From assembly GCA_964414595.1 (NCBI GenBank), contig CAYPXJ010000002.1:22328-86327 (forward strand): 64,000 nt of DNA. The letters are read 5' to 3'. This DNA is from an uncultured Rickettsiales bacterium (GTDB lineage Bacteria; Pseudomonadota; Alphaproteobacteria; Rickettsiales; CAIJLX01). Made by a program: the position numbers and the translations under genes. How positions within the stretch are numbered: the stretch's first letter is position 1; every line of letters starts with the position of its first letter. Shown in pieces: positions 14,524 to 45,215 of this stretch. The notes below the pieces were generated by a model. The model was not told the DNA's origin and did no database searches. It saw only the letters and a list, made by a program, of their open reading frames with translations.

Positions 14524-14594
14524 AGTTTGAACTCACCAAGAATAGTGTATGTATAGTTATCAGGGTGACTATATAGCCTGAGAACAAAAAATCT

Positions 14595-17788: not shown

Positions 17789-18912
17789 ACCAACCCCAAA
17801 ACAACACGCTACCTGTATTATATTTGGTTGATGGCTCGGTGGCCGTCACCGGCGCATTTATATCTGCGCGTAATATGGCGCGCGTGTTGAAAAATTCGAT
17901 GCGCGTCGTACTTGTTCTGCCGCGTGAAAGTACGATTCCTGCTGAAGAGTTGAAAGATTTTTGGCGTGTCGACTATCTACCAATCGTGGGTTTATCCAAG
18001 AGGATCTCCCCGTTGCTTCGCTATGTTCCTTCGCTTTTTATCGCCTCGTGGCATTTGCTAAAGAGAATGAGAAACGATGGCGCTGATGCTTTGCTGCTGA
18101 ATGATTTTTATTTGATGCATGGTGCCGTTCTGCGTCTATTTGGGTTTAAGGGAAAAATCATCTCATGGGTGCGGTGTGACCCAAAGCGCTTTGCCGGCTT
18201 TCTGGCACAGCCTATTCTTTGGCTGGCAGCAAATAGCGCTAATCACATAGTTGCTGTGTCCAACTATATTCGGTCGCTTTTACCGGCACATTTCTCGGTT
18301 CAGACGATCCACAATTGTTACCGCGGGACACCCCGAACACCAAGAGTTTGGCAGCCAGATGACATTAAAACCTTCGTCTATATTGGTAACTATATCTATG
18401 GCAAAGGTCAGGATATTGCACTGCAAGCTTTTGCTGTGGCGGCCAAAAACGATTCAACATTGCAGCTGGAATTTTACGGCGGCGATATGGGGCTTGAAAA
18501 AAATTGCCGCTTTCGCGAGCAGTTACAAGCACAGGCGCAACAGCTGTATATTTCCGATCGCGTATCGTTTCATGATTTTCATGCTGATACGTTTTCGATA
18601 CTTGAGAGGGCTTTTGCCGCGCTAAATTTTTCCTTCTCCGAGTCGTTCTCGATGACGGTGCTGGAAGCTTCCGGCGTCGGCGTACCGGTGATTGCCACGG
18701 CTTCCGGTGGGCCGCAGGAAATTACGCAGGAGGGTATCACTGCCTATATTATTCCAGTCGGCGATGTGAATGCCGCAGCCGATCGCATGCTTACGTTGGC
18801 GAAAAACCCTGATCTCGCCGCGAAGATGGGCAAGGCTGGCGCAGTGCATGTACAGCAGCATTTTTCCGCTGATGCGCTTCGTTCTAAACTGCTTTCCATA
18901 CTTACTTTATAA
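17785..18912 (+). CDS. glycosyltransferase family 4
   Basis: SESFSMTVLEASGVGVPVIATASGGPQEI motif. ATGA overlap with the upstream gene. Confidence 0.82.
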   Translation: MNQPQNNTLPVLYLVDGSVAVTGAFISARNMARVLKNSMRVVLVLPRESTIPAEELKDFWRVDYLPIVGLSKRISPLLRYVPSLFIASWHLLKRMRNDGADALLLNDFYLMHGAVLRLFGFKGKIISWVRCDPKRFAGFLAQPILWLAANSANHIVAVSNYIRSLLPAHFSVQTIHNCYRGTPRTPRVWQPDDIKTFVYIGNYIYGKGQDIALQAFAVAAKNDSTLQLEFYGGDMGLEKNCRFREQLQAQAQQLYISDRVSFHDFHADTFSILERAFAALNFSFSESFSMTVLEASGVGVPVIATASGGPQEITQEGITAYIIPVGDVNAAADRMLTLAKNPDLAAKMGKAGAVHVQQHFSADALRSKLLSILTL

Positions 18913-18998
18913 TTCAAGCATAAATCAGCCCCAGCCATGGGCTGCGTAACAAGTCTGATCTTCAGTTTGAGTAGATAGCGGGAAATTGGCTATGGGAT

Positions 18999-19045
18999 TG
19001 GTTGCGGGGGCTGGATTTGAACCAACGACCTTCAGGTTATGAGCC
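18999..19045 (-). repeat. int-distal att repeat: displaced 3' part (47 nt, anticodon stem G31 to CCA) of tRNA-fMet
   Basis: tggttgcgggggctggatttgaaccaacgaccttcaggttatgagcc matches 57548-57594 at 42/47 positions. It lacks the 5' half of the tRNA. Sequence diverges immediately after ...gagcc. Confidence 0.9.
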
Positions 19046-19091
19046 CGCATACCCACATTCTATCCTATTGATATTTTAAGGGCTTTTTTAG

Positions 19092-19135
19092 GCGCGATAT
19101 GTTTTGTGCGAGATTTTGTGCGAAAAATTTGCGCA
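19092..19135 (+). promoter_or_regulatory. candidate arm-type recombinase-binding repeats (GCGCGATA; TGTGCGA x2 plus a degenerate TTGCGCA)
   Basis: GCGCGATA at 19092-19099 and TGTGCGA at 19105-19111 and 19117-19123. The same two motifs recur at the other ICE end (57421-57510). Confidence 0.5.
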
Positions 19136-19164
19136 GAAATCCGCTAATTAGGAAATCCAACCAA

Positions 19165-20337
19165 TTAGATATATTCTCTTCTTGTAACCTGAGCGATTAG
19201 TTTCCAAATTTTGTCGCTGCGCTGATTCATGGGATTACGTAGATCAAGTTGTTCTTCCGCCCACCGTATCCATTGCTCCATTGTTTTGTCGCCTAGCTCT
19301 CTTGAGTCGTCCCTAGGCATTTGCTTTAACTTTGACAGGAACCTACGGGCAGTTTCCACCTCTTGCCATATATTCGCCATATTGATGAAACATTGCCAGC
19401 GGTCATCTTCCTGTTTCCGATACCGCTCCTCCTCCAGGCGTTGTTGTCGCTTGATTTCTGATTGACGCTTTTCCTCTTCTTCTTGTTTTCTCCTTGCAAC
19501 AAAAAGAGGAATTGCGGCAAGAATTGTTGCCACGATATCCGCTAACATATCTTCCATTGTATGATTGGAAGATTCTACCCACTCATGGCGCATATTCTCA
19601 GGCAGCCAGGTTCTTATCGTGAACACCAGGCAACCTGTGGGCACCAACTCACGCATGGTGGTTCTGTCTCTATAGAAAACTGACTCCTTTTCTTCTTCGG
19701 TGAGAGGTCTGTATATTTGTTTCAGCTTCTCTCGCATATTGAATTCCACCTCTTCTTGTTTGAATTCTACAGCCAGCCCTCCCCTATCATTTTGCTTTAT
19801 CTTGCCGCCTTTTGCTTCCAGTGCATTAAACAATCCTTGTAGGATAAGGTGGATGCGCTTATCGGTTCCAGTTAATTTCTCTGGTTTCCATATTTGTCGC
19901 CGCACAGGATCGAATTCCCTCCGATATTGCGCCCATTGGTTCTCATTTTCCTTAAGCCATTTTCCAATGATAGGATGTGGTTTCACCAGTCGCTTTGGTA
20001 TATGAATACGCGGATTCTTAAGGCGCATCTCAGCTATCGCCGCTTTTACCTCTGGCCGCACCTTCTTATTTAATGAAGTGGCACGAATGTAAGCACCCTT
20101 TGGCGTATTTTCTTTCTGTGTCGGCAATTTTCGGGTCGTTACGTTATATCCCGCTGCTTTCTTTGCCCAATATCCACGTGCCGGATATGGCACGTTTAGA
20201 CGGTCACAGATTTTCCGCAGACCGCTATCCGAAACCCCATACTGACCAGCGAGCTTACTCATGGGTGTCTGCCAGACCTGAACATATAATTCTTCACGGG
20301 TGACTAGTTTCCCTTTTGATGGTATCTCAGAATTCAT
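19165..20337 (-). CDS. hypothetical protein (N-terminal conserved basic domain, central region, charged coiled-coil C-terminal part)
   Basis: 390 aa. N-terminus TREELYVQVWQTPMSKLAGQYGVSDSGLRKICDRLNVPYPARGYWAKK. Later RRKQEEEEKRQSEIKRQQRLEEERYRKQ. Divergent from the helicase gene and AT-rich. Confidence 0.6.
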   Translation of the reverse strand: MNSEIPSKGKLVTREELYVQVWQTPMSKLAGQYGVSDSGLRKICDRLNVPYPARGYWAKKAAGYNVTTRKLPTQKENTPKGAYIRATSLNKKVRPEVKAAIAEMRLKNPRIHIPKRLVKPHPIIGKWLKENENQWAQYRREFDPVRRQIWKPEKLTGTDKRIHLILQGLFNALEAKGGKIKQNDRGGLAVEFKQEEVEFNMREKLKQIYRPLTEEEKESVFYRDRTTMRELVPTGCLVFTIRTWLPENMRHEWVESSNHTMEDMLADIVATILAAIPLFVARRKQEEEEKRQSEIKRQQRLEEERYRKQEDDRWQCFINMANIWQEVETARRFLSKLKQMPRDDSRELGDKTMEQWIRWAEEQLDLRNPMNQRSDKIWKLIAQVTRREYI

Positions 20338-20495
20338 GTAGCCTCCCCTTGTCTTCTTTGCTAATCAAACTTCTCTATTATCAATAGATTAAAAGAAATA
20401 TTGGCAAGGTATTAGCATCCTTTATTATATACGCAAGATTTGCCTGAGTATTTATCAGCGACGCTAAAAAAACTTAGAATCAGAATGAGATACCA

Positions 20496-23400
20496 ATGCA
20501 GAATGTAGTTAAAATGCCTAAGCCTCAAATCTTCGAGCATGGCGCTGCATTTTTGAAAGATTTGACCCGATATTACATGGATTTTCTGGAAACAGATTTC
20601 CATAAGAGGCCTCTACCTAAAAGATATATAAGGATCAGAGACTCAAAAGGTCATCTTACCGGCATAAATCTTAGAAAATATGAGAATTGCCGTAAAGCTA
20701 TCTGGAGATTTTTTACGGAAGAAGGAACTGAAAACTCTAATTTAGAAATAAGGAGGGGTCAGTACAAATCCCGAATTAAAACCAGTCTAAAGAACTTCAT
20801 CGATAATAATATTGAAGAACTTAAAGAAGACACTCTAAACGAGACAATAACCCAGGCTGTTAAAGACTTTAGGGAACATAAAAAGAAGTACCGTGACGAT
20901 TGGGATAACTTCTATGAAGAAAGCCTCGAAACAATCCGAAATCTTGTTTTAAGAAATATTATAAGACCGCTTTCTGAGGTACTTGAGAAGCCGCTTATTG
21001 AAGAAAAGTCATTAGGCCTGGAAACGATTTTTGAGCTCGAAGACGATCTAATCGATCTGCTTTGTTCAGATATAAATGAAAGTATAGATAAGTCTCTCAT
21101 CCAGTTTTTTACAAAAAACCAAGCAGAAGAAATTACCAAGTATCTCAAAGACCTTCTGCAACGAGACGTACTGGTAGATAAGCTAAAGGCATTTTTTGAA
21201 AATTTCAGCTCCAGTGATCTCTTCTTAGAATTTAATGAAATATTTGAGAACAACCGCTTAAACGATAAGGAAGATATTTACCTCTATTTTTGTGACATCA
21301 ATTTTAGCAAGCGAACATATCCTCTCTTTTATTTTCCCATACAAATTGAAAAGCAGATTGATAAGTTCGTCATGCATTTCGATCCGCATATCCTTATTAA
21401 TAAGAAAGCCATCGAATATATTGTCCAAGAATATAATAAAGAAGCGCAGAAAACAGGTGGAATTAATAGCCTGAAAGATAGAATTCTCTACGCTACATCA
21501 GAGGAAGAAAAGAGAATTTGTGACCACTTGCAGCCTATTGTCTCTGATATTGCCTCTCATTTTTCTTTGTCCGATACATTAAATCTCGAAGATGAAAAGC
21601 CTTCTCAACAAAAGTCACTATACGCAAATATAACGAATGATATTTATTTTTGCCTTTTTGATAGATCGGACGAAGCATTAGTTAATGATTACGAGGAACT
21701 ACTTCAGTTAATTGAAGAAGGTGACAATCCTCTTTCAGAGATTTTTATTAACCTTATAAATGGCTACATCGTTGATGATCCTGTTTCCTATACCAGCGAA
21801 GTCGAAAGCGAATGGGATGCCAGGAATATTTCTGAACGATTGGTTTATGATTCTCCCATTCCTTTAAATGAAGAACAAAAAAAGATTCTAAGCGCACTTC
21901 AAAAAGAAGGATGCAGGTACATAGCTGTGCAAGGCCCTCCAGGGACAGGAAAGAGCCACACAATTACAGCCATAGCCTTTGATGCCATTATACGTAATAA
22001 CTCAGTTCTTATTCTGTCTGACAAGAAGGAGGCGCTTGATGTAGTGGAAGACAAAATCGTTGATACGATTAATAAAGTCCGTATTTCAGATGATTTTCAG
22101 AACCCTATCCTAAGACTCGATAAGCGTAACTTCGGCAAAATTATTACGGCTTCCTCACTTACGAAAATTAAAGACCATTACAAAGCCTCCAAGCAAAAAG
22201 AAGATGAGGTTGAGGCTCTACTCAAGGAAAAACAAGTTTCACTGCAAGAAGCCATCTCCCATACAATTTCTCAATATGAGTCTGTTGATCTCAAAGGAAT
22301 TAAGGAATTCCTCGATCTTGAAACAGCAGTGGGAAAGAAAGTAGATTTAAAAAAGCTAAAAACAACCAAAGACTGGTCGGCCATCTCCTTGGCGCTGACT
22401 AACTTCTTTGTTTGTATTGGGCAGCACCAGAATAACCAAAATTATCTATTCTTGGTCGATACTCTTCTAAAAGAGCATAAAAACTGGTTTGACGAAGGCA
22501 TTTCTACCACCATACAGATTTTTCGACTAGCTGCTGAGATGAATCAGGAGGGTTATGGTGACCAGTTATCGGTTTTGCTGAATATCACAGAGGAAACGGA
22601 AGGTACCTTACAGGATTATATTCATCAGTATAAGTTGCTGACCTCAGGCTTCTTTAAAGGCTTCTTCAGAAAAGCGGAGATAAAACAGTTAGAGATTCAG
22701 CTAAATTCCTCACTTGAACTAAGAAGGTTCGTTACATTCGCAGAAGATTTAAGGCTCTTGGAGAAAGCATATTTCTGTATATCAGAAATAAAATACCGAC
22801 TGCGTGAGATAGGCGAAAATCATTTTCTGGAATTCTGTCGCATTCTCACGCATCCCGACTGCCCGGATATAGCATTGCTTGACCAGCTTTCCCCAATCCA
22901 AGAGTTTATCAAACTGAACGGGAAGTTGCCCAAGCCCTTGCTTAATAAACTGAAAATGGATTTCAGCATTCAGGGGGCAAAAGATAAAGAGGCCATCCTA
23001 AAATCTTTAAATGCCATTAACCTGCTGCGTTCCTATGAAGATGCAGAGCAAAAATACATGCGCCTTTTTGGGGAAATTCCTGATGTAAGTTACTCCGACG
23101 TATGCCATCAAATGGAGAAGTTGCAGACCACTAAAATGGCAAACCTTATTGATAAGAGGGTTATCGATTTTGTAGAGGGCAGCAGATCTACGGCACAAAC
23201 ACTTAAAAAGATCATATCCAAGAAGCAAAAATTTCCACGTGTTGAGTTTGAAAAAATCAAAGAAGCATTTCCGTGTATCATCGCAGGAATACGTGATTAC
23301 GCGGAGTATATTCCTTTAGAAAGGGAATTATTTGACGTCGTAATCATCGACGAAGCTTCTCAGGTAAGTATTGCACAGGCCTTTCCTGCAATTCTTAGAG

Positions 23401-24692
23401 CCAAGAAAATTATTGTGCTGGGGGATAACAAACAGTTCAGTAACGTAAAAACATCGAATGCCAGCAATGTAATAAATCACCGCTACATGAACGATATTAA
23501 GGCAAGCTTCCTTAGCCATATATCCGCCGATGCTGCAAAATTAGAACGGATTCAGCAATTTAATATCAAAACATCCATACTCGAGTTCTTTCAACATATT
23601 GCTAACTATCACGATATGCTGAGAAAGCATTTCCGTGGGTACAGAGAGTTAATTTCTTTCTCCAGCCGATGGTTCTATGACGGAAATCTTCAGGCAATCA
23701 AAATTCGTGGAAAACCCATAGATGAGGTCATAAAATTTACTATCCTTCAACATGATAAGAAACTGGAAGTTTCGGAAAGAGCAAACACAAATCCATTTGA
23801 AGCAGAATTCATAATTAAGGAGCTGGAGAATATTTTAGAGGGTGAAAACCCACCTAGCGTGGGAGTTATTACTCCTTTTACAAATCAGCAAAAGTATATT
23901 GCCACTGAAATATCAAAATCGGATTACGCAGATGACATCTATTCTAAACTTAAACTTAAAGTAATGACGTTTGACACATGCCAGGGCGAAGAGCGGGATA
24001 TTATTTTCTACTCAATGGTTGCCTCTCCTATATCTGACAGGACAAACTATATATTCGCCAGTGACTTAAAACACGACAATGATGATGAGAAAAAAATACG
24101 GTTACAACGCCTGAACGTTGGGTTTAGCCGGGCAAAAGAGTGCATACATTTTATCCTTAGTAAACCTCTTGAAGAATTCAGCGGTTCTATAAGTACTGCC
24201 CTTAAACACTATCAGAAACAGCTGGAAGTGGGGAGAGAACAACCCTCCGAAGCTGATGTTGATCCCTCATCTCCTATGGAGAAGAAAGTGCTGGAGTGGA
24301 TTAAGGATACAAGCTTCTATCAGGCTAATACAGATTACCTTAATCTCCATGCTCAATTTCCGATCGGAGAATATTTAAAACAACTGGATAATGGTTACAA
24401 ACACCCCAGCTATCGTTGTGACTTTCTTCTGCAATATTTAAAGGAGGGAAAGCCACTCAATATCATCATTGAATATGATGGCTTTAAAGAGCACTTTACT
24501 GATTGGGATGATGTCAACGAACTGAATTACCAAAATTATTATAAAGCTGCCGATGTAGAGAGAGAAAAAATACTGGAAAGCTACGGCTATAAGTTTATCC
24601 GAATCAATCGTTTCAACCTTGGTGATGATCCCGTAGTTACACTTTCAAAACGATTAGAAAATCTCGTAAAAAAAAAACTCAATAACACTTGA
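20496..24692 (+). CDS. large SF1 (Upf1/DNA2-like) helicase fused to a C-terminal Vsr/DUF559-like restriction-endonuclease-fold domain
   Basis: Walker A VQGPPGTGKSHTI, motif II VVIIDEASQV, TFDTCQGEERDIIFYS, RLNVGFSRAKE. C-terminus YRCDFLLQ..IIIEYDGFKEHF..ADVEREKILESYGYKFIRINRF. About 470 aa of the N-terminus are unassigned. Confidence 0.85.
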   Translation: MQNVVKMPKPQIFEHGAAFLKDLTRYYMDFLETDFHKRPLPKRYIRIRDSKGHLTGINLRKYENCRKAIWRFFTEEGTENSNLEIRRGQYKSRIKTSLKNFIDNNIEELKEDTLNETITQAVKDFREHKKKYRDDWDNFYEESLETIRNLVLRNIIRPLSEVLEKPLIEEKSLGLETIFELEDDLIDLLCSDINESIDKSLIQFFTKNQAEEITKYLKDLLQRDVLVDKLKAFFENFSSSDLFLEFNEIFENNRLNDKEDIYLYFCDINFSKRTYPLFYFPIQIEKQIDKFVMHFDPHILINKKAIEYIVQEYNKEAQKTGGINSLKDRILYATSEEEKRICDHLQPIVSDIASHFSLSDTLNLEDEKPSQQKSLYANITNDIYFCLFDRSDEALVNDYEELLQLIEEGDNPLSEIFINLINGYIVDDPVSYTSEVESEWDARNISERLVYDSPIPLNEEQKKILSALQKEGCRYIAVQGPPGTGKSHTITAIAFDAIIRNNSVLILSDKKEALDVVEDKIVDTINKVRISDDFQNPILRLDKRNFGKIITASSLTKIKDHYKASKQKEDEVEALLKEKQVSLQEAISHTISQYESVDLKGIKEFLDLETAVGKKVDLKKLKTTKDWSAISLALTNFFVCIGQHQNNQNYLFLVDTLLKEHKNWFDEGISTTIQIFRLAAEMNQEGYGDQLSVLLNITEETEGTLQDYIHQYKLLTSGFFKGFFRKAEIKQLEIQLNSSLELRRFVTFAEDLRLLEKAYFCISEIKYRLREIGENHFLEFCRILTHPDCPDIALLDQLSPIQEFIKLNGKLPKPLLNKLKMDFSIQGAKDKEAILKSLNAINLLRSYEDAEQKYMRLFGEIPDVSYSDVCHQMEKLQTTKMANLIDKRVIDFVEGSRSTAQTLKKIISKKQKFPRVEFEKIKEAFPCIIAGIRDYAEYIPLERELFDVVIIDEASQVSIAQAFPAILRAKKIIVLGDNKQFSNVKTSNASNVINHRYMNDIKASFLSHISADAAKLERIQQFNIKTSILEFFQHIANYHDMLRKHFRGYRELISFSSRWFYDGNLQAIKIRGKPIDEVIKFTILQHDKKLEVSERANTNPFEAEFIIKELENILEGENPPSVGVITPFTNQQKYIATEISKSDYADDIYSKLKLKVMTFDTCQGEERDIIFYSMVASPISDRTNYIFASDLKHDNDDEKKIRLQRLNVGFSRAKECIHFILSKPLEEFSGSISTALKHYQKQLEVGREQPSEADVDPSSPMEKKVLEWIKDTSFYQANTDYLNLHAQFPIGEYLKQLDNGYKHPSYRCDFLLQYLKEGKPLNIIIEYDGFKEHFTDWDDVNELNYQNYYKAADVEREKILESYGYKFIRINRFNLGDDPVVTLSKRLENLVKKKLNNT

Positions 24693-24726
24693 GCTTACAG
24701 AAGACATTGTTGAAAAGGCCAGAAAA

Positions 24727-25020
24727 TTGGGTGCTGGCGAAGCTAAAGAGTGCCCAATATGTGAAGAAGTAAAACCCCTCTCTGAATTCAAAGATAGCCG
24801 TTTAAAGAGCGGCATAGGCAGAAACTGTAAATCGTGTAAAACAGGCGGGCATAAAACGACCCGTAGCAATCACTACATGACACCTGAATTAGCTGAACTC
24901 CAGTCACCTAATTGCCCTTTATGTAATAAGAAAATGAAAATTAGGTTCCGCAGACGCGACGGTAATCCCTTCTGGGGTTGTCCTGGTTTCCCTTACTGCA
25001 AGGGTACGAAAGAAATATAA
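24727..25020 (+). CDS. double zinc-ribbon protein with a topoisomerase-type C4 finger (may be a frameshifted C-terminal extension of the helicase)
   Basis: CPICx17CKSC and CPLCx18FWGCPGFPYCKGT. There is no ATG start (TTG at 24727). The frame is open back into the A10 run at 24668-24677. Confidence 0.55.
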   Translation: MGAGEAKECPICEEVKPLSEFKDSRLKSGIGRNCKSCKTGGHKTTRSNHYMTPELAELQSPNCPLCNKKMKIRFRRRDGNPFWGCPGFPYCKGTKEI

Positions 25021-26088
25021 TTACGCGCAAACTTTTGCCAGTGCTTTTACGGCACGCTGGAAGTGATCGCCTTTATCAGTCTTTGATAGACTAATACGCT
25101 CATTAAGTCCGGTTTTGCTGGATAATTCTATATATCCATATTCCGCTATTGGAATTTCAGGATTATCACTAAATCTCCGATCGGGTCCGCCACCTTTATT
25201 CACGTATTTCCATGTTCTACCAACTATATTTGCATCACTAGGCACGCCGTCTTGCTCAATAAAATTGCTTGAGTAAATATTAAAATCCAAATCTCTGTAA
25301 GAAACTGCTCCAACAGCGTTATTTTCAAAGACCAATAGTCTGTCAGGAAAGAAAAAAAGTGTTTGTCTTCCCGCGCCAATCGCAGGGGTAAGAATATTTG
25401 TTTTGACGAAAGGTGCTTGTCTCTTAGCTATAAAGGTAGTTTTACGTTCTATTAAATTATCGGCACCCGCATGATATTTTTTATCATACACTCTGCCCTG
25501 CGCCTCGATATGCCAAACCTTCTTACAGGATGCCATTTCATCGATGGCATGGTGAAGCGCCTCATATAAGGGCTCTATATCGCCCTCTAATTCGTAGAAT
25601 AACACCACCGTTTTCCGCATCTGATCGTAATAATATGCTGCTAACGTCACTATAGCAGTCACAATAATTCCAATTAAATGCCAGGCAGACAACCAAGTGA
25701 GTACAAGTCCGACGGTAAGAGCTACAGGCCATATCCTCCATTTTTTACGTTTTGCATTCAACTCATTAAGTAATTCTGATGAGTCTGAATCCGTCATAGC
25801 AAAAACGGTTGTGCTTTCAATTTCTTCTAAAGGCGCATGTGTAGCATTGTCAGCTTCCTGAGATTTATACGGCAGCGGCTCAGATTTTGAATGTCTTGTT
25901 TTGTTGTCGGCAATCGGGGATAAGGTTTTTCGATAGTAAATCCCACCTCTGCCCATATGAACATAATTGCCACGAGGCCCCATACCAACCCGGAACCCCT
26001 TAATGCCTGCAGATACGCCGACCCCTGACTTTGAAAGATTAAACCTTAGAGGGCCTACAGTAATGCTTTTTCTTAAATAAAACCCCAT
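25021..26088 (-). CDS. DUF4236-domain membrane protein
   Basis: N-terminus MGFYLRKSITVGPLRFNLSKSGVGVSAGIKGFRVG (DUF4236 signature as I recall it). Two TM helices (WRIWPVALTVGLVLTWLSAWHLIGIIVTAIVTLAAYYY). About 190-aa C-terminal domain with FFFPDRLLVF...GGGPDRRF. Confidence 0.7.
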   Translation of the reverse strand: MGFYLRKSITVGPLRFNLSKSGVGVSAGIKGFRVGMGPRGNYVHMGRGGIYYRKTLSPIADNKTRHSKSEPLPYKSQEADNATHAPLEEIESTTVFAMTDSDSSELLNELNAKRKKWRIWPVALTVGLVLTWLSAWHLIGIIVTAIVTLAAYYYDQMRKTVVLFYELEGDIEPLYEALHHAIDEMASCKKVWHIEAQGRVYDKKYHAGADNLIERKTTFIAKRQAPFVKTNILTPAIGAGRQTLFFFPDRLLVFENNAVGAVSYRDLDFNIYSSNFIEQDGVPSDANIVGRTWKYVNKGGGPDRRFSDNPEIPIAEYGYIELSSKTGLNERISLSKTDKGDHFQRAVKALAKVCA

Positions 26089-26109
26089 ATAAGAAGTGAA
26101 ATTAAATTC

Positions 26110-26253
26110 TTATTTTTTCTTAGGTGGCGGCGGTTTTATATCTGATGTAGGCGTTACCTTGCCAGACTGTGGCATAGGTTTCTGAGTGGTGCTAGTTAAT
26201 GTGGCATACCCTTTATGCTGGAAAGCAGGAGCAAGAGAATCTTTTTCTGACAT
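26110..26253 (-). CDS. possible small Pro/Lys-rich protein (47 aa), not in the ORF track
   Basis: The ATG immediately follows the TAA of the upstream gene (TAAATG). The tail GKVTPTSDIKPPPPKKK echoes the upstream protein tail GLVTPSSALKPPAPTQKSK. Low-complexity, so uncertain. Confidence 0.3.
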   Translation of the reverse strand: MSEKDSLAPAFQHKGYATLTSTTQKPMPQSGKVTPTSDIKPPPPKKK

Positions 26254-26790
26254 TTATTTACTTTTCTGCGTAGGCGCGGGAGGTTTTAGTGCGCTACTGG
26301 GTGTGACCAATCCTTTTATGGTATCTTGCTTGCTTGAAGCAGCTGGCGGCGGCGCTTTCGTTTCTTCTTGTCGAGAATTTGAGTTATTCATACTTACCGA
26401 GAAAGTTAGAGTAGCATAAGTCAAAAAGACAATAATACCAAAACAGATTAGAAACAAGCTTACACAGTTGAACACCGTCGTGCAGCTATTCCAACGCATT
26501 GTTTGTTTATACATTTCGTTCGTTCTCTTTGTGGGCTTAGTATTCCTATAATTATACGCTAAATGATTATGTCTCTCAGAAGTCCCATGTGAAAGTAGTA
26601 CAGAAACAATAGCCAAACCAAAACACCACCACGATGCGACTAAAAGTTCATAATAAGCAGCTACAGATATTCCAATAATGTTAACAAAATAAACTGAAAA
26701 GCCTAATGCAGTAGTAGAAAGTACCAGAAGCTCTTTATCTAGTGTTTTCCTAGATTCATCAAGATTTTGATAAAATTTATCTTTACCCAT
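26254..26790 (-). CDS. hypothetical integral membrane protein
   Basis: 178 aa with 3-4 hydrophobic segments and a Pro-rich C-terminal tail. AT-rich and co-oriented with the DUF4236 gene. Confidence 0.55.
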   Translation of the reverse strand: MGKDKFYQNLDESRKTLDKELLVLSTTALGFSVYFVNIIGISVAAYYELLVASWWCFGLAIVSVLLSHGTSERHNHLAYNYRNTKPTKRTNEMYKQTMRWNSCTTVFNCVSLFLICFGIIVFLTYATLTFSVSMNNSNSRQEETKAPPPAASSKQDTIKGLVTPSSALKPPAPTQKSK

Positions 26791-26853
26791 TTTCTGCTTT
26801 GCTATCTATTCCGGGTATCCTCTAGCCTTCTTTATACAAAATTCTGCAATTAA

Positions 26854-27243
26854 CTACAATGTCTCCTGATACTTCTCCGTCAGGCTGTCTGCTATTGCGC
26901 GGACAATACCGCATACCCGGTTTCGCACGGCGCGTGAACGGATACGGTGGAAATGCGCAATCAACATATCGACACCGTGCGGGTTCCATAATTTTTCCTT
27001 AGCCAGGCGGGTTTCTTCTAGCACATCTTCGCATAGCTCATCCACGGAACATTTATAGAAAGCCGCAAGCTCAATCAGTCGTGCGGCGGTGATATTATTT
27101 GCCCCGCTTTCGTATTTTTGCAGCTGCTGGAAGCTGATTTGAAGATGTCCAGCGACGGTTTTCTGTGAAAGACCTGCCAGCATTCGCCGGTGGCGAACGT
27201 TTTTACCGATACGTGCATTGAGGGCAGAGAGGCGATCTTTCAT
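26854..27243 (-). CDS. XRE-family HTH transcriptional regulator (paralogue of 44207-44581)
   Basis: HTH core LAGLSQKTVAGHLQISFQQLQKYESGANNITAARL. About 40% identical by eye to the regulator at 44207-44581. GC is backbone-like, unlike its neighbours. Confidence 0.8.
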   Translation of the reverse strand: MKDRLSALNARIGKNVRHRRMLAGLSQKTVAGHLQISFQQLQKYESGANNITAARLIELAAFYKCSVDELCEDVLEETRLAKEKLWNPHGVDMLIAHFHRIRSRAVRNRVCGIVRAIADSLTEKYQETL

Positions 27244-27281
27244 ATACCGAATAGAACAATCGTATCTTTATATAGATTTCA

Positions 27282-27298
27282 TATCGTGCAATACGATA
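27282..27298. promoter_or_regulatory. candidate operator palindrome TATCGT-N5-ACGATA in a divergent promoter region
   Basis: Lies in the 133-bp gap between the divergent HTH genes (27243 / 27377). Related ATCGT/ATCGC half-sites are nearby. Confidence 0.35.
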
Positions 27299-27376
27299 CC
27301 ATATATCGCTACGGGAGTTAAGAAAATTCATTACCTGATAATTTTGGGACGATCCAATCCCAATGAAGGTAATGGT

Positions 27377-27643
27377 ATGAAAAAGAAAAAAGCGAGCGAA
27401 GCAACAAATCTTTGCGGCAAACGCATCAAGATTGCACGAATTTCTAAAGATATGAAACAAATCGACGTAGCGTCTGCGATGAATGTGGAATACGGCATCG
27501 ACATTACGCAGAATGGAATCTCTTATATTGAACGCAACCGCCGCTTTGTTAAAGATTACGAGCTGGTAGCGCTGGCGAAAATACTTGGGGTTAGTCCCCT
27601 CTGGCTGTTATTCGGCGATAAAATTCCGGCGGAATATAAATGA
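27377..27643 (+). CDS. XRE-family HTH protein (88 aa), first gene of a three-gene cassette
   Basis: I prefer the start at MKKKKASE (ATG 27377, GAAGG upstream) over the track start 27218. HTH MKQIDVASAMNVEYGIDITQNGISYIERN. The stop overlaps the next start (ATGA). Confidence 0.75.
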   Translation: MKKKKASEATNLCGKRIKIARISKDMKQIDVASAMNVEYGIDITQNGISYIERNRRFVKDYELVALAKILGVSPLWLLFGDKIPAEYK

Positions 27644-28158
27644 GAACAAGAATGAACTACTCTGATACTTCTACTTTGGAGCTTCTGAAAAGCTATGACG
27701 CAATACTCGAAGAATTGCGCAAAAGGAAAGTTGTACGCAATTCAAATCCGCCAGCAGGAGGGTATGCAGAACACTTGGCCGCCAAGGCACTCCAACTCAC
27801 TCTCGAAAACAATTCTAACGCAGGGTATGACGCAACCGACAAGAATAATTTTCGTTACGAAATAAAGGGTCGCCGTATAACTCAGCACAACCCGTCAAGG
27901 CAATTAAGTGCAATAAGAAACATTAAAAACGCTCACTTTGATTTTTTAATCGGCATTTTATTTGCGGCGGATTTTGCTGTTTTAAAGGCCGCGCAGATCC
28001 CGCACGCTGTGGTAGCCGAGAAATGTAGATTCTCAGGCCACACGAACTCCTCTATCTTTATTTTGAACGATTCAATCTGGCAATGTGATGGGGTAAAAGA
28101 TTTAACAACCACGCTTCAGGAAGCGCAATTACTCAACGATAAAATTCTAGCAAAGTAA
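27640..28158 (+). CDS. hypothetical protein with a PD-(D/E)xK-like nuclease motif pattern
   Basis: 172 aa. E44 (GYAEHL), D64 (GYDATD), E74-I-K76 (RYEIKGRR). Its TAA abuts the next ATG. Confidence 0.55.
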   Translation: MRTRMNYSDTSTLELLKSYDAILEELRKRKVVRNSNPPAGGYAEHLAAKALQLTLENNSNAGYDATDKNNFRYEIKGRRITQHNPSRQLSAIRNIKNAHFDFLIGILFAADFAVLKAAQIPHAVVAEKCRFSGHTNSSIFILNDSIWQCDGVKDLTTTLQEAQLLNDKILAK

Positions 28159-29241
28159 ATGGGTGGAACACTGAAGCTTTACGGAATCAATAGGATATTT
28201 ATCTTAGGTGCCGGTTTCTCCGCCCCTCTAGGCATGCCTTTAACAAGTGAGCTATTAGGATTAGTTTATAAAATAGCTGTAAAAAGTCCTTGGTACGATG
28301 AACACAGTAAATCTGTTCCTCATGGAATGGGTGCTTGGCTGGTTGAAGAGCTTGAGTGGTATTTTCCATTGGAAGACTTCTCTCATCAAAAACTCCAAAA
28401 GGGAAATTTTCCTGAGAATGTAGATGTTGAAAAATTTTTATCCTACGCATATGCAACATCCGCTTTTGGGGAGCAGTGGGATGAACAAGGTGATAAGTTC
28501 ACGTGCTTCCTCAGAAAATTTATGGGCGAGGCAATATATAATAGACAAGTAGAGTGCTTCCAAAACGGAATACCGCCTGTTTACCAGAGTTTTATAAATA
28601 GTCTGCAAGGTTCTCTGATAATGACTTTCAATTGGGATACAGTTGTTGAGAATCTTCTGAATCAAGATCAGAAGCAATACTCATACGACTTTCCAGCCAC
28701 GTATAAAACGCAACTTATTCCAATTATCAAACTGCATGGATCGATAGATTGGTTTTCCAATTTGCAATACAAGAAGCAAGATTGGATGAAATTTGTTCCG
28801 GTTTACCGGCCGACCACCGGCATTGAAGATGGAGAAATCAAATATGGCGATCCCGTTTTGTTTAAGGCTCAAGGAAATCTTCTAGATTATTATAAAGCCT
28901 ATATGAGCCCTCGGTTAATAGCGCCCGGTTATGACAAACTCAGCCAAGTCACTGCGTTAGGAGATTATTGGAAATACCCTTGGATGTTATTGCAGGATAA
29001 TCTTGAGGTAATCGTTATTGGCTTCAGTATGCGCCCGGACGATTATCACAGTCGTGCTTTTATTTATCCTCAGTTGGTAGATGGTTCAAGAAATAAGCGC
29101 TTAAAGGTAAAGGTTATTGATCATGCTACTGATGACAGAAAAAGAGAAGAGGTTCGGGCAAGGTTTGAAGGTGTTGATAATATTGAATTTTGGTTTGACG
29201 GCTTCAATGAGGGGGCAATCAATTTCATAAATTCAAAATAA
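28159..29241 (+). CDS. SIR2-like (SIR2_2 / AbiH-like) putative NADase effector
   Basis: IFILGAGFSAPLGMPL (aa 13-28), IMTFNWDTVVENLL (N158), IIKLHGSIDW (H193). The N-to-H spacing of 35 aa is close to that in defence SIR2 proteins. 360 aa. Confidence 0.7.
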   Translation: MGGTLKLYGINRIFILGAGFSAPLGMPLTSELLGLVYKIAVKSPWYDEHSKSVPHGMGAWLVEELEWYFPLEDFSHQKLQKGNFPENVDVEKFLSYAYATSAFGEQWDEQGDKFTCFLRKFMGEAIYNRQVECFQNGIPPVYQSFINSLQGSLIMTFNWDTVVENLLNQDQKQYSYDFPATYKTQLIPIIKLHGSIDWFSNLQYKKQDWMKFVPVYRPTTGIEDGEIKYGDPVLFKAQGNLLDYYKAYMSPRLIAPGYDKLSQVTALGDYWKYPWMLLQDNLEVIVIGFSMRPDDYHSRAFIYPQLVDGSRNKRLKVKVIDHATDDRKREEVRARFEGVDNIEFWFDGFNEGAINFINSK

Positions 29242-29311
29242 TTTAAGTTGCATATATTTTATATCGCTCTATTTATGGTTGAGAGTATTTTTTACCTTTT
29301 GCCTATGTAGA

Positions 29312-30292
29312 ATGCTTATGTATGCACAGCTTGAGTTAGAGCCAGATATTTCTACTCATAAGCACCGGCTTCTTGAAAAACTCCGGCGCGACTTAGGCAA
29401 CCCGCTACTTAACGCCCTCTCCGATCCCCACACCATCGAAATCATGCTGAACGCCGACGGCACACTCTGGCAGGAGTGTTTAGGCAAACGGATGCGCATG
29501 ATTGGAAAAATGCAGGCAAGCCGGGCCGAAGCGGTGATGCGCACCATCGCCACGTATCTTGATTCCACCATCACGCGGCAGAAACCGATGCTGGAGGGCG
29601 AACTTCCGCTCGACGGCTCGCGTTTCGCCGGGCAGATTCCGCCGATTGTTCATGCGCCGACTTTCGCCATACGCAAGCGGGCCAGCGCGATTTTCTTGCT
29701 CGGTAAATACGTGGCGGAAAAAATCATCACGGCGCAGCAGAAGGAAATCATTGTCCAGACCGTCCGTGATCACCGGAATATCCTCGTTATCGGCGGCACC
29801 GGCTCAGGCAAAACGACCCTGACCAACGCCATTATTCAGCAGATGGTCGAGGATAACGAGGACGAACGCATCTTTATCATTGAGGATACCGGTGAAATCC
29901 AGTGTTCGGCAAAGAATCTCGTGCAATATCACACGACGCTCGACATCAACATGCTGCAACTATTGCGGACGACGCTGCGTATGCGCCCCGACCGTATTCT
30001 GGTCGGCGAAGTGCGCGGGCCGGAAGCACTCGACCTGTTGATGGCGTGGAATACCGGACATGAAGGCGGCGTGGCGACTCTCCACGCCAATAACGCCAGG
30101 GCGGGACTTGATCGCCTGGCGATGCTCATCAGCATGAACCGCGATGCGCCCTCACCTATTGAGCCGCTGATCGGCGATGTGGTGCATCTCATCATCCATA
30201 TCGCCAAAACGCCGGAAGGCGGGCGCAAAGTGCAGGAAATTCTCGAAGTCTCAGGTTACGCGAACGGAAAATACAAAACACGAAAACTTTAA
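29312..30292 (+). CDS. trbB: TrbB, VirB11-family T4SS ATPase
   Basis: Walker [22 protein letters not shown], His box TLHANNA. The start is uncertain (TTG 29279, or ATG 29312/29318). The first ~55 nt are AT-rich, unlike the rest of the gene. Confidence 0.9.
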
Positions 30293-30306
30293 CAAGGGAG
30301 CGTCTT

Positions 30307-30654
30307 ATGCCGTATCGTCTTTTACTTCTGCTCGGATTATTTACCATCATCATCTTCGCGGGAAGCGACGCTATCGCGGGAACGGCGACGGGCGGCTCAC
30401 TCCCTTATGAAAGCTGGCTTACCGGCTTACGGAACAGCGTCACCGGCCCTGTCGCGTTCACGCTCTCCATCGTCGGGATCATCGTGGCCGGTGGCGTTCT
30501 GATTTTCGGCGGCGATTTAAACGGCTTCTTCCGCACGCTGATTTTCATTGTGCTGGTGATGGCGCTTCTGGTTGGCGCGCAGAACATGATGAGCACGTTC
30601 TTCGGCAGCGCCGCCGTTATCTCTTCGGTTAGCGAACCTGTACGCATCGGCTGA
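30307..30654 (+). CDS. trbC: TrbC, VirB2-type pilin precursor
   Basis: Signal peptide, then [38 protein letters not shown], typical of TrbC/VirB2. Confidence 0.88.
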
Positions 30655-30965
30655 TGTCGCTGCGCACGATACCGATTCGCCGCGCCGGAAACCGCCCCAA
30701 TCTTTTCATGGGCGGCGACCGGGAAATGGTGATGTTCTCCGGCTTGCTGGCAGGCGCGCTGATATTTTCCGCGCAGGAATGGAAGGCGTCCCTTTTTGGG
30801 ACAATCCTCTGGTTCACCTCTCTTTACCTGCTGCGGCTGATGGCGAAATCCGATCCGCAGATGCGCGCGGTCTATATACGTCACCGGCGTTATAAAACCT
30901 ACTACCCGCCGCGCGCGACGCCGTTCCGGGAAAACTCCAACGCGCAAGGGAGCCGTTACAAATGA
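30654..30965 (+). CDS. trbD: TrbD, VirB3-like
   Basis: IRRAGNRPNLFMGGDREMV motif. 103 aa. 1-nt and 4-nt overlaps with its neighbours. Confidence 0.88.
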   Translation: MSLRTIPIRRAGNRPNLFMGGDREMVMFSGLLAGALIFSAQEWKASLFGTILWFTSLYLLRLMAKSDPQMRAVYIRHRRYKTYYPPRATPFRENSNAQGSRYK

Positions 30966-33517
30966 TAACCTTCCTTGCCTGTCTTATCGCAGTTTCCGGC
31001 ACCGCGTTGCTGGCGATGCTGGCGGCAAGGCTTTGGGAAATGGAAAAAGACAAGCGTCTTGCCAAACATCGGGCAAAAGACGCGGGCATGGCCGACCTGC
31101 TCAATTATGCCGCCGCCGTGGACGATGGCGTTATCGTCGGTAAAAACGGCGCACTGCTGGCCGCCTGGCTCTATCAGGGCGAAGACAACGCCAGCAGCAC
31201 CGACGAACAACGCGAAATCATTTCCTACCGCATCAATCAGGCGCTCGCCGGTTTAGGTAACGGCTGGATGCTGCATATCGACGCCGTGCGCCGCGACGCA
31301 CCCAATTACAGCGACCCCGGACTTTCGCATTTTCCCGATACCGTCACCCAGGCGATAGACGAAGAACGCCGCCGCTATTTCAATAATCTCGGCACATTGT
31401 ATGAGGGGTTCTTTGTGCTGACGGTGACGTATTTCCCGCCGATTCTCATTCAGACCAAATTCATCGAAATGATGTTTGATGACGAAACCGAAACGGCGGA
31501 CAAAAAATCGCGGACGCTGCATCTGCTCGATTACTTCAGGCAGGAGGTAAACAATATCGAAACGCGGCTTTCCACTGCGTTCAGAATGGAACGGCTGCGC
31601 GGCAGAAAAGTCGTCACCGAAGAAGGCGCGATGCAGACCGAGGACGATTTCCTGCGCTATCTGCAATTCTGCGTCACCGGCCTCAATCATCCGGTATTGC
31701 TGCCTTCCAGCCCCGTTTATCTCGATGCGCTGATCGGCGGGCAGGAACTCTGGGGCGGCGTCATCCCGAAAATCGGCCGCAAATTCATTCAGACGGTTTC
31801 CATCGACGGCCTGCCGCTGGAATCCTATCCGGGGATTCTTTCCCAACTGGCGGAACTGCCGGTGGAATATCGCTGGAACACGCGCTTTATCTTCATGGAT
31901 ACGCACGAAGCGGTCAGTCATCTCGAAAAATTCCGCAAGAAATGGCGGCAGAAAATCCGTGGATTCTTCGATCAGGTCTTCAATACCAACAGCGGCCCCA
32001 TCGATCAGGACGCCGCCGCGATGGTGGCCGACGCCGAAGCGGCGATTGCCGACGTCAACAGCGGCATGACGGTGGCGGGATATTACACCAGCGTCGTCGT
32101 TCTCATGGATGAAAACCGGCTCAAGCTGGAAGCCGCTTCCAAACAGATAGAGAAAGCGCTGCATAGTCTCGGTTTCGGCGCGCGCATCGAAACCATCAAC
32201 ACGATGGAAGCCTATCTGGGCAGTCTGCCGGGTCACGGCGTGGAAAATGTCCGCCGCCCGATTCTCAACGCGATGAATCTGGCGGACTTGCTGCCGACCA
32301 GTTCCATCTGGACGGGCGAGAACACCGCGCCCTGCCCTTTCTATCCGCCTTCCTCGCCGCCGCTTCTGCATTGCGTCACGACCGGCCACACGCCCTTCCG
32401 CCTTAATCTGCATGTGCGCGACCTCGGCCATACCATCCTGTTCGGGCCGACAGGCAACGGAAAATCCACGCATCTGGCGCTGCTGGCTTCCCAGCTTCGG
32501 CGCTATCCCGGTATGAGTATTTTCGCGTTCGACAAAGGTATGTCACTTTACCCGCTGACCAAAGCGACCGGCGGCAAACATCATACGGTCGCAGGCGATA
32601 GCGAAGCGCTTTCCTTCTGCCCCCTGCAATTTCTGGAAACTCCCGGCGATCGCGCCTGGGCAATGGAATGGATCGATACGATGCTTGCACTTAACGGGCT
32701 GAATTCATCGCCCGCCCAGCGCAACGAAATCGGCAGCGCGATTCTCAACATGCACGAGACACATTCGCGCAGCCTGACCGAATTTGCTTCCAGTATTCAG
32801 GATAAATCCATCCGCGAGGCGCTCAAGCAATATACGGTCGAAGGTTCCATGGGTCACTTGCTCGACGCCGAATCGGACGGGCTGGCGCTCAGCAATTTTA
32901 TGACGTTCGAGATCGAAGAACTGATGGGCCTCGGAGAAAAATACGCACTGCCGGTGCTGCTTTACCTGTTCCGCCGCATCGAACGGTCACTGCGCGGGCA
33001 ACCGGCGGCTATCATTCTCGATGAAGCCTGGCTGATGCTGGGCCACGAAGCTTTCCGCGAAAAAATCCGCGAATGGCTGAAAGCGCTGCGCAAAGCGAAT
33101 TGCATGGTCATCATGGCGACGCAAAGCCTTACCGATGCGTCCCGTTCCGGTATTCTCGATGTGATTGTCGAATCGACGGCGACGAAAATCTTTCTGCCGA
33201 ACGTGTTTGCGCGGGATGAAGATACGGCGGTGCTTTACCGCCGTATGGGACTCAATAACCGGCAAATCGACATTATCGCCGCTTCCACACCGAAGCGTCA
33301 TTACTATTACGTTTCGGAAAAAGGACGCCGTCTTTACGACCTGGCGCTCGGCCCCCTGGCGCTGGCGTTCGTCGGCGCATCGGACAAGGAATCCATCGCG
33401 TCGATGCAGGCGCTGGAAGCCAAACACGGGCGGCGATGGGTCAGCGAATGGCTGAAAGCGCGTAACCTGAACCTGCGGGATTACGTCGAAGACGCCGTAG
33501 AGGAGATGGCGGCATGA
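30962..33517 (+). CDS. trbE: TrbE, VirB4-family ATPase
   Basis: 851 aa. Walker A GPTGNGKST and Walker B AIILDEAW. Confidence 0.93.
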   Translation: MITFLACLIAVSGTALLAMLAARLWEMEKDKRLAKHRAKDAGMADLLNYAAAVDDGVIVGKNGALLAAWLYQGEDNASSTDEQREIISYRINQALAGLGNGWMLHIDAVRRDAPNYSDPGLSHFPDTVTQAIDEERRRYFNNLGTLYEGFFVLTVTYFPPILIQTKFIEMMFDDETETADKKSRTLHLLDYFRQEVNNIETRLSTAFRMERLRGRKVVTEEGAMQTEDDFLRYLQFCVTGLNHPVLLPSSPVYLDALIGGQELWGGVIPKIGRKFIQTVSIDGLPLESYPGILSQLAELPVEYRWNTRFIFMDTHEAVSHLEKFRKKWRQKIRGFFDQVFNTNSGPIDQDAAAMVADAEAAIADVNSGMTVAGYYTSVVVLMDENRLKLEAASKQIEKALHSLGFGARIETINTMEAYLGSLPGHGVENVRRPILNAMNLADLLPTSSIWTGENTAPCPFYPPSSPPLLHCVTTGHTPFRLNLHVRDLGHTILFGPTGNGKSTHLALLASQLRRYPGMSIFAFDKGMSLYPLTKATGGKHHTVAGDSEALSFCPLQFLETPGDRAWAMEWIDTMLALNGLNSSPAQRNEIGSAILNMHETHSRSLTEFASSIQDKSIREALKQYTVEGSMGHLLDAESDGLALSNFMTFEIEELMGLGEKYALPVLLYLFRRIERSLRGQPAAIILDEAWLMLGHEAFREKIREWLKALRKANCMVIMATQSLTDASRSGILDVIVESTATKIFLPNVFARDEDTAVLYRRMGLNNRQIDIIAASTPKRHYYYVSEKGRRLYDLALGPLALAFVGASDKESIASMQALEAKHGRRWVSEWLKARNLNLRDYVEDAVEEMAA

Positions 33518-34209: not shown

Positions 34210-34220
34210 CAGGAGCCTGT

Positions 34221-35641: not shown

Positions 35642-35643
35642 CC

Positions 35644-36909: not shown

Positions 36910-36919
36910 AAGGCGCACC

Positions 36920-39158: not shown

Positions 39159-39168
39159 AGGAGCATCT

Positions 39169-43987: not shown

Positions 43988-44053
43988 ACCTCCTAAGACG
44001 GTAGTCGTCCCTCAGGGCAGGTTTACTGTTGAGCGTGAAGCGCGAATAAAAAC

Positions 44054-44713: not shown

Positions 44714-44747
44714 AATCAAGCATGATCTCTCTTATTTGGATAAATTT

Positions 44748-45200: not shown

Positions 45201-45215
45201 CCCGGCGTTCAGGCA

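Follow-up and report, generated by a model that had tools for sequence, protein, structure and literature searches.

An AT-rich cargo zone upstream of trbB in a Rickettsiales integrative and conjugative element is probably a mosaic defence island and carries a helicase-nuclease gene split at an A tract

The stretch of DNA analysed here (64,000 nucleotides from an uncultured Rickettsiales bacterium, positions 22,328 to 86,327 of contig CAYPXJ010000002.1, assembly GCA_964414595.1; termed the window) contains an integrative and conjugative element (ICE) of about 38.5 kb at a tRNA-Met gene. Besides a tyrosine integrase, this ICE encodes a Trb-type (MPF_T) mating-pair formation system, a TraG coupling protein and a TraI-like relaxase. 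The subject of this report is the zone of about 10 kb at its att-distal end, upstream of trbB. The zone encodes nine proteins, termed A390, B1398, C, D355, E178, F129, G, H172 and I360, with the size in amino acid residues given in the name where one is attached. At least three of the zone genes are of defence type, and the zone is probably the variable cargo end of the ICE and a mosaic defence island of independently circulating genes. One unusual feature of this zone is that the gene for its helicase-nuclease is split at an A tract.

The left end of the ICE is an attachment (att) repeat at 18999-19046, a 48-nt partial copy of the 3' half of tRNA-Met, which aligns over its full length with 57548-57595 and shares with it an identical 20-nt core, CGACCTTCAGGTTATGAGCC. 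The opposite end (56106-57624, minus strand) carries the integrase gene and the intact tRNA-Met gene. The integrase, a tyrosine recombinase with a Phage_integrase match, is encoded by an open reading frame (ORF) at 56106-57407 that adjoins tRNA-Met(CAT) at 57548-57624, the sole tRNA gene of the window. Two TTTGTGCGA repeats are located just inside the left end (19103-19123, plus strand) and two more beside the integrase gene (57429-57448). These are the only four copies in the window, all on the plus strand, against a mean of 1.13 in shuffled sequence, and they are probably candidate arm sites for the integrase or excisionase. The conserved conjugation backbone begins with the gene for TrbB (29279-30292, plus strand; T2SSE match, E 7.5e-37), which forms the right boundary of the zone. 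It extends from trbB to trbL at 29279-39158 (TrbB, TrbE, TrbL and others), and is followed within 39427-43895 by genes for a TraF-type peptidase, a TraG-like type IV coupling protein (39993-41822) and a TraI-like relaxase (41823-43895). The element is identified as an ICE by the integrase gene beside the tRNA gene, the direct repeat of the 3' portion of this tRNA at the opposite end, and the type IV secretion genes together with the coupling protein and relaxase genes. The rest of the ICE holds regulators, more cargo and ArdC.

The GC content is 40.2% in the zone (19047-29278), 56.4% in the trb genes (29279-44000), 46.1% in the left flank and 44.1% in the right flank. These values define three compositional classes: the host, an ICE backbone that is GC-richer than the host, and cargo that is AT-richer than the host. 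The first-pass annotation, made from the sequence alone, had described an AT-rich zone of about 10 kb between the att end and trbB. This description is borne out, with the att end being a real partial copy of tRNA-Met, and its two local values (35.0% GC at 21001-21100 and 58.0% at 31021-31120) are reproduced exactly; all the ORFs that it listed exist. The GC content at third codon positions (GC3) of the zone genes ranges from 30 to 53%, and the coding strand changes four times across the zone. No insertion scars, insertion sequence (IS) elements or recombinase genes are present inside the zone, and a search of 18800-29400 for direct or inverted repeats that bound cassettes gives only short, low-identity chance matches. 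A promoter and terminator scan is uninformative, with fewer promoter-like sites than in shuffled sequences.

When 185,579 species genomes are scanned with TrbB, 80 loci show 62-84% identity to this protein. The nearest relatives are metagenome-assembled genomes of uncultured Alphaproteobacteria, at no more than 84% identity. Homologues of the zone proteins were sought within 10 kb of trbB in these loci by a relaxed tblastn search with hits filtered at E < 0.05. No homologue of any of the nine proteins is found in the 80 loci, whereas TrbC and TrbE are recovered in 74-77 of them. Instead, the region upstream of trbB contains different genes in different relatives: a WYL-like regulator (read from sequence), an extracytoplasmic function sigma factor and a Czc-type efflux pump (L001); a tRNA, an integrase, an excisionase-like gene, an S24 repressor and a replication-like gene (L002 and L003); AbiEi/AbiEii and genes without assigned function, followed by host valS (L004); a full-length PADLOC PDC-S68 helicase (1608 bits) in a stretch of 36-41% GC (L026); and a STAND-like NTPase with AAA_22 and TPR domains in a stretch of 32-37% GC (L043). 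The content of the position upstream of trbB therefore varies, and the relatives, too, often have AT-rich and defence-like cargo there. The zone is cargo and not backbone, as the first-pass annotation had supposed. Each of the seven zone proteins that are found by exact look-up is a singleton when about 15 billion proteins are grouped at 90% identity, and an exact-sequence look-up of the window proteins in the contig index gives no match, though they are present in the protein collection. Variable cargo of deviant composition at a fixed backbone position, enriched in genes of restriction and abortive-infection type, is also characteristic of the defence hotspots of other ICEs and mobile elements, such as the variable hotspots of SXT/R391. 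The present zone differs from these in that it belongs to another ICE lineage (Trb-type, tRNA-Met), occupies an att-distal position upstream of trbB and consists mostly of unvalidated families. ICE-borne defence islands are already a familiar theme, and the zone as a whole thus adds an example rather than a principle.

The gene for H172 (27640-28158, plus strand) encodes a protein of 172 residues that is similar to modification-dependent restriction endonucleases of the BisI family, which act on 5-methylcytosine (5mC). H172 matches Eco15I (PDB 8q5m) with E 5.7e-34 over residues 11-148, about half of which are identical by eye, NhoI (PDB 8q5n) with E 1.1e-19 over residues 5-161, and the PADLOC mREase_II model PDLC03212 with E 3e-56 over its full length (5-162 of the 161-position model). 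The catalytic motifs of this family, the (H/R)(V/I/T/M) pair of the methyl pocket and a proximal Arg have been defined structurally (PMC11347163). All of them are kept in H172. The active site consists of the helix Glu E44, the Asp D64 of the 'xD' motif (Y63-D64, where Eco15I has 'AD') and the (D/E)XK motif E74-I75-K76 (QIK in Eco15I), while in the methyl pocket H134-T135 aligns to the H-V pair of Eco15I and R93 to the conserved proximal Arg. The homology, the active site and the methyl pocket together assign H172, at the level of sequence, to the BisI family (Type IIM). The first-pass annotation had found no module in the zone that matches a system it could name, which does not hold for this gene. 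H172 should cleave GCNGC sites that carry several 5mC or 5-hydroxymethylcytosine bases, that is, modified phage or plasmid DNA. It resembles other BisI-family enzymes in its size. No methyltransferase gene adjoins it, no motif IV of 5mC methyltransferases is found in the 64-kb window, and the methyltransferase that the ICE does encode (46026-46862) is of the N6/N4 type. H172 differs from both Eco15I and NhoI in having the canonical Glu in (D/E)XK, where these have Gln, from Eco15I in not having the extra C-terminal domain, and from its relatives in that its gene forms part of an operon-like string on an ICE, with an HTH gene on one side and a SIR2 gene on the other.

This HTH gene, termed G (27377-27643, plus strand), encodes a small helix-turn-helix (HTH) protein of 88 residues (HTH_3, E 1e-6), and its stop codon overlaps the start codon of H172 (ATGA). 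The Eco15I-like gene on an E. coli plasmid is also preceded by an HTH gene. The overlap and this parallel suggest that G is a probable controller of the restriction gene. Carriage of a BisI-family enzyme by a conjugative element, with a probable HTH controller, matters for which methylated DNAs the host of that element would exclude. BisI homologues are present on 110 plasmid records. On a plasmid of Rhizobium sp. 007 (L083, 4010-5286) and on pBVIE03 of B. vietnamiensis (L081), they are found close to psiB or within strings of small hypothetical genes ahead of a large gene with a helicase domain, a setting like that of a leading region. The former plasmid also has, about 400 nt from its BisI homologue, an XRE gene 30% identical to F129.

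F129 itself is an XRE-family regulator (26854-27243, minus strand; HTH_3, E 2.7e-11), encoded divergently from the HTH-BisI unit, and may regulate this unit. It is the GC outlier of the zone, with 50.8% GC and a GC3 of 53% as compared to 30-47% in its neighbours, and shares 30% identity along its entire length with the ICE regulator at 44207-44581. It had been described as a backbone-like regulator stranded among AT-rich cassettes. Its composition and its similarity to the ICE regulator agree with this description, but no F129 homologue is found near trbB in the 80 relatives.

The gene for I360 (28159-29241, plus strand) begins directly after the H172 stop codon and encodes a stand-alone SIR2-type protein (SIR2_2, E 2e-5), a predicted NADase effector. 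I360 contains the motifs GAGFS (17-21), TFNWD (156-160) and KLHGS (191-195). Among 43 homologues, no variation is seen at residues G17, A18, G19, F20, T156, N158, K191, H193, G194 and S195 and almost none at W159 and D160. The I360 model has a predicted local distance difference test (pLDDT) score of 92.2. All of its 50 best PDB matches are antiphage SIR2 proteins, with SIR2-HerA 8sub at the top (E 4.4e-9); the matches comprise SIR2-HerA, KomC, ThsA, DSR2, SPARSA and AVAST5 (Foldseek, TM score about 0.5). As modelled, I360 has the SIR2 fold of the antiphage type, and it is predicted to deplete NAD+ upon activation, as in abortive infection. I360 is similar to antiphage SIR2 NADases in its fold, in the three motifs with N158 and H193, and in its length, which is close to that of the SIR2 subunit of SIR2-HerA. 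It differs from these systems in having no HerA, KomA/KomB, SLOG, Ago/APAZ or STAND partner or domain, and its homologues are single genes. HerA is found neither among the zone proteins nor beside the I360 homologues examined, so that the locus is not a SIR2-HerA system. The sensor domains of ThsA, DSR2, SPARSA and AVAST5 are also absent, as I360 is modelled as a single SIR2 domain and contains no other Pfam domain.

The largest gene of the zone encodes B1398 (20496-24692, plus strand), a superfamily 1 (SF1), Upf1-like helicase (AAA_11, E 2e-15; AAA_12, E 3e-21) with a C-terminal nuclease domain similar to Vsr and DUF559. The N-terminal part of B1398 is a conserved domain of about 450 residues without annotation, and the C-terminal part gives a weak MTES_1575/DUF559 match. 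The Walker A motif (G480-H488), DEASQ (952-956) and the nuclease residues D1309, E1326, D1328 and H1333 are invariant in 25 homologues. The family has more than 1900 homologues, most of which are 1510-1570 residues long and end in a fused Zn ribbon of the topoisomerase type. The defence models PDC-S37, MkoA, MkoC and Hhe of PADLOC and ProA and Hhe of NCBIfam match B1398, but only partially and only in the helicase core. The Hhe match is confined to model positions 1195-1538, with no DUF4011 or DUF3320 match, and B1398 is thus not an Hhe protein. Likewise it is not a Mokosh protein: MkoA (E 1e-39) and MkoC (E 7e-36) match only the core, and no PLD domain or gene is present in the zone. PDC-S37, a model without a gathering threshold, matches with E 2.7e-42 and is similar in overall length, the best stretch being residues 936-1272 against 928-1252 of its 1550 positions. 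Judged by these matches, B1398 resembles the single-gene helicase-nucleases Hhe, MkoA/MkoC, PDC-S37 and ProA but does not belong to Hhe, Mokosh or ProA, and probably not to PDC-S37. It shares with these proteins and with Nhi the architecture of a large single polypeptide with a Upf1-like SF1 helicase (AAA_11/AAA_12) and a nuclease, and a lone gene carried on mobile elements. It differs from them in that the alignment is limited to the core with scores 10-20 fold under the cut-offs, in that DUF4011, DUF3320 and PLD are absent, and in the features of its own family, which are the N-terminal domain of about 450 residues and the Zn ribbon. No experimentally tested member of this family was found in the literature searched. 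Full-length fused relatives of B1398 are also present on four IMG/VR contigs classed as viral (L189-L192). Those of L189 and L192 each align in one piece over the full length, at 31-39% identity, and those of L190 and L191 reach up to 53-55% over the C-terminal part. The family is therefore carried by prophage-like elements too.

In the window, the Zn ribbon is encoded downstream of B1398 in another frame, which is +1 relative to that of B1398 (C; 24676-25020, plus strand; topoisomerase-I type, Zn_ribbon_Top1, E 7.8e-5). As a listed ORF, C has 97 residues and starts at the TTG at 24727. A fused homologue, P0130 (55% identical), aligns unbroken across the boundary of B1398 and C, and the homology to its C-terminus begins inside a run of ten A residues (A10; 24668-24677, plus strand). 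The 97-residue ORF is, on this alignment, the C-terminal Zn ribbon of the B1398 family itself, out of frame here, and not a separate partner. The first-pass annotation had proposed a helicase-nuclease with its partners, and neither of the two proteins concerned can be kept as one, the other being A390 (see below). The A10 tract is a candidate site of slippage or phase variation and is the sole A run of at least nine in the 4.5-kb gene. A nine-residue run (A9) is located at the same codons in relatives that are 71% (L099-L101), 66% (L102) and 55% (L106) identical, in which the ribbon is in the -1 frame, and the zero-frame heptamer is A AAA AAG in L099, L102 and L106. In each of these split genes (window, L099, L102 and L106) the tract is the only A run of at least nine, though synonymous sites are saturated elsewhere. 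No such tract is present in the fused relatives. A stimulatory RNA structure was sought 3' of the tract and is not conserved (consensus energy -1.7 kcal/mol), nor is any Shine-Dalgarno (SD)-like element.

The ribbon is out of frame behind A10, so that a full-length form is possible only if transcription or translation slips on the tract or if the tract changes in length. The required frame change is -1 for the A9 relatives and +1 or -2 for the A10 of the window, and the peptide that spans the junction of a frame-shifted product would read ...LVKK(K)NSITLELTEDIVEK.... Slippery and phase-variable tracts are well known from the -1 frameshift at A AAA AAG in dnaX, from transcriptional slippage on A9 runs and from phase-variable restriction-modification genes. 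The tract described here is similar to these in that an A9 or A10 run is located exactly at a domain boundary and is followed by a conserved frame, in that the dnaX heptamer is common to three relatives, and in that the tract length varies among relatives. However, the A10 of the window does not fit a -1 shift of the dnaX type, as +1 or -2 is needed, and neither a stem-loop nor an SD-like element is conserved. Literature searches turned up no study that describes a slippage tract in a helicase-type defence gene.

The gene for D355 (25021-26088, minus strand) abuts the Zn-ribbon ORF tail to tail. D355 consists of an N-terminal DUF4236 domain, two transmembrane helices and a C-terminal domain. 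The match to PF14020 (E 5e-16) over residues 3-53 scores 59.4 bits against a gathering threshold of 27, which assigns D355 to the DUF4236 family. In the D355 model, the DUF4236 domain is poorly modelled, and the block means of pLDDT for residues 80-355 are 78-97, mostly at least 89. The C-terminal domain has no significant match in the PDB or among the viral models of BFVD and shows only a weak PH-like similarity. A search of the literature gives no dedicated study of DUF4236 and one incidental mention. The family has more than 2500 homologues, and no neighbour is conserved in 77 metagenome loci. In four of the 41 loci with flanks of at least 4 kb, the DUF4236 gene directly adjoins a large SF1 helicase gene of the same orientation, from which it is separated by 13-204 nt. 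Same-strand adjacency of a DUF4236 gene and an SF1 helicase or helicase-nuclease gene is observed in six independent loci (L108 4001-9706, L124 7001-12684, L185, L151, L138 and L092), and the same arrangement is present on a plasmid of P. aeruginosa. In L108, an alphaproteobacterial element, the DUF4236 gene is 13 nt from a fused B1398 homologue, and both are about 50-55% identical to those of the window. Helicase genes are the sole recurrent neighbours of DUF4236 genes, and D355 is therefore linked more to B1398 than to E178. The DUF4236 gene is autonomous. The abutting membrane protein may act as a facultative accessory of such helicase-nucleases, or the adjacency may reflect clustering in defence islands.

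E178 (26254-26790, minus strand) is a small multi-pass membrane protein of an uncharacterised family with 297 homologues at E<=1e-3. It had been joined with D355 in a DUF4236/membrane operon, but no E178 homologue is present in the 77 DUF4236 loci or on plasmids, and E178 is rejected as a conserved DUF4236 partner. A hint of SLATT_1 in E178 is rejected as well: the scores are 15.7-20.5 bits against cut-offs of 26.3 and 41, and none of 41 homologues matches. A390 (19165-20337, minus strand) is encoded by an autonomous gene without assigned function and matches no Pfam, NCBIfam or PADLOC family. Its homologues are present on 103 plasmid records, mostly alphaproteobacterial. In the three contexts inspected they have no conserved partner, and AbiE, Abi, RES-Xre and Fic genes are located nearby. 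A390, which is upstream of and divergent from the helicase gene, is absent beside every helicase homologue examined and is rejected as a helicase partner.

In the proposed island, the single-polypeptide SF1 helicase with the Vsr-like nuclease would recognise and degrade invading nucleic acid, and the Zn ribbon behind A10 would be added to form a long product by slippage or a change in tract length. The island includes the DUF4236 membrane protein, whose gene abuts the helicase gene and is an occasional same-strand neighbour of such helicase genes elsewhere. The small HTH gene would be translationally coupled to a BisI enzyme that cuts modified GCNGC sites, and the stand-alone SIR2 protein would deplete NAD+ once activated, leading to abortive infection. 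A390, E178 and F129 are assigned no role. Whatever the activities prove to be, three large families are delimited here as single genes, namely a helicase-nuclease with a Zn ribbon, a solo SIR2 protein of about 350 residues and a DUF4236 membrane protein.

Several observations weigh against this interpretation. The B1398 scores are far under the curated cut-offs (135 against 1500 bits for ProA and 91.8 against 2000 bits for Hhe), A390, D355 and E178 have no functional annotation and D355 has no significant structural match, experimental backing exists for the BisI family only and there in homologues, the modules are not separated by repeats, IS elements or recombinase genes, and plasmid BisI homologues are sometimes located in surroundings like those of a leading region, beside psiB. 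Surroundings of this kind would allow a role in the transfer biology of the element itself. The zone as a whole might serve the transfer or establishment of the ICE by anti-defence, exclusion or addiction, rather than the immunity of the host cell. The ICE carries ArdC, plasmid BisI homologues either adjoin psiB or belong to groups of many small hypothetical genes that precede a large helicase-domain gene, and A390 homologues on plasmids are located near toxin-antitoxin genes, as would be expected in this case. This explanation is nevertheless improbable, because enzymes of the BisI family have been characterised as restriction endonucleases (PMC11347163, PMC4926085), the I360 model matches only antiphage SIR2 effectors, the best matches of the helicase core are defence models, and profile scans detect no anti-defence family in the zone. 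Acquisition of the whole 10-kb block in a single event, with the complete defence island supplied by another element and without stepwise insertion at a hotspot, is a more serious alternative, though still a rather unlikely one. It agrees with the lack of repeats, scars, IS elements and recombinases in the interior, owing to which serial insertion is not demonstrated and the block could have arrived whole, and with L108, in which homologues of the helicase and DUF4236 genes are already adjacent, so that at least this pair may travel together. It agrees less well with the spread of GC3 from 30% to 53% per gene and the four strand changes, with the occurrence of every other module elsewhere without the rest, and with the different cargo of the relatives at the site upstream of trbB. 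Of the earlier proposal of repeated insertion at one hotspot, the variable cargo, the independent distribution of the modules and the GC3 spread are thus consistent with the proposal, while traces of the insertions themselves are not found; serial insertion remains plausible.

Two narrower alternatives concern the parts of this island. The genes for G, H172 and I360 might form one three-gene system that couples restriction of methylated DNA to NAD+ depletion, much as the first-pass annotation had taken them for one HTH/nuclease-like/SIR2-like operon. They are on the same strand with overlapping or abutting stop and start codons (27640-27643 and 28158/28159), and SIR2 effectors of the size of I360 usually have a partner, as in SIR2-HerA and KomBC. 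However, I360 homologues with 48-67% identity occur alone in four contexts, namely after dprA, beside an integrase gene, between chromosomal genes, and in a conjugative element near AbiEii, and no BisI homologue is located beside them in any of the four. In the plasmid collection, the SIR2 gene matches a single record and the BisI gene 110 others, with no overlap. BisI and SIR2 genes are therefore rejected as a conserved pair, and the string of three genes is a local juxtaposition of two autonomous units. With BisI-family enzymes being active alone in vitro (PMC11347163), a coupled system has little probability.

The split between B1398 and the Zn ribbon might likewise be a homopolymer sequencing error or an inactivating frameshift with decay of the C-terminal domain, rather than recoding. 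Some sequencing platforms are prone to errors in homopolymers of 9-10 bases, the Zn ribbon is truly lost in a relative with 50% identity (L107), and no RNA structure is conserved downstream of the tract. These points are outweighed by the recurrence of the break at this tract in four sources that are independent of one another, which are NCBI (the window), Logan (L099-L101, with the L099 contig in 13 samples), JGI (L102) and ENA (L106). Furthermore, the ribbon frame is open for 113-120 codons with all eight Cys kept, its proportion of nonsynonymous differences (pN) is 0.21-0.37 against a saturated synonymous one (pS) of 0.79-0.96, three of the four loci lack any ATG, GTG or TTG downstream of the tract and ahead of the first Cys (the exception is the window, with a single TTG), and at least ten short-form clusters with 41-71% identity end 1-20 residues past the conserved VKKK. 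Error or decay, which fits the conservation in four sources poorly, is thus doubtful, and the most economical reading of these sequences is homopolymer slippage or phase variation by tract length, with a conditional Zn ribbon. A tentative extension of this reading is that B1398 represents a lineage in which the ribbon behind A9 or A10 may give rise to short and long isoforms, or to phase switching, of a candidate antiphage enzyme, with the abutting DUF4236 protein as a possible facultative accessory. The conserved split offers a compact case in which to ask whether a defence enzyme outside classical restriction-modification is tuned by recoding or phase variation.

Other loci of the ICE and its flank are noted as follows. 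A second defence-type locus at 44709-46862 is laid out like a type II restriction-modification locus of the controller, restriction enzyme and methyltransferase (C-R-M) order. It consists of an XRE gene (44709-45200), an ORF of 269 residues without annotation (45216-46025) and the N6/N4 DNA methyltransferase gene (46026-46862; PADLOC MTase_II, E 4.5e-102), which is convergent with and abuts the 269-residue ORF. A second AT-rich patch (37% GC) at 52399-53983, just before ArdC (53997-54905), has two overlapping ORFs of 301 and 228 residues without a Pfam family, the latter with a weak PADLOC PRTase_III-A match (E 8.5e-4). Non-defence cargo at 47641-51943 encodes a TonB-dependent receptor, an FAD-binding oxidoreductase and a YfiR/HmsC-like protein. 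In the left chromosomal flank, a polysaccharide biosynthesis cluster with glycosyltransferases and an acyltransferase, as read from the ORF sequences, occupies 12485-18912. The last gene of this flank (17785-18912) is confirmed to encode a group 1 glycosyltransferase, which also matches the 'GT4-conflict' Pfam model.

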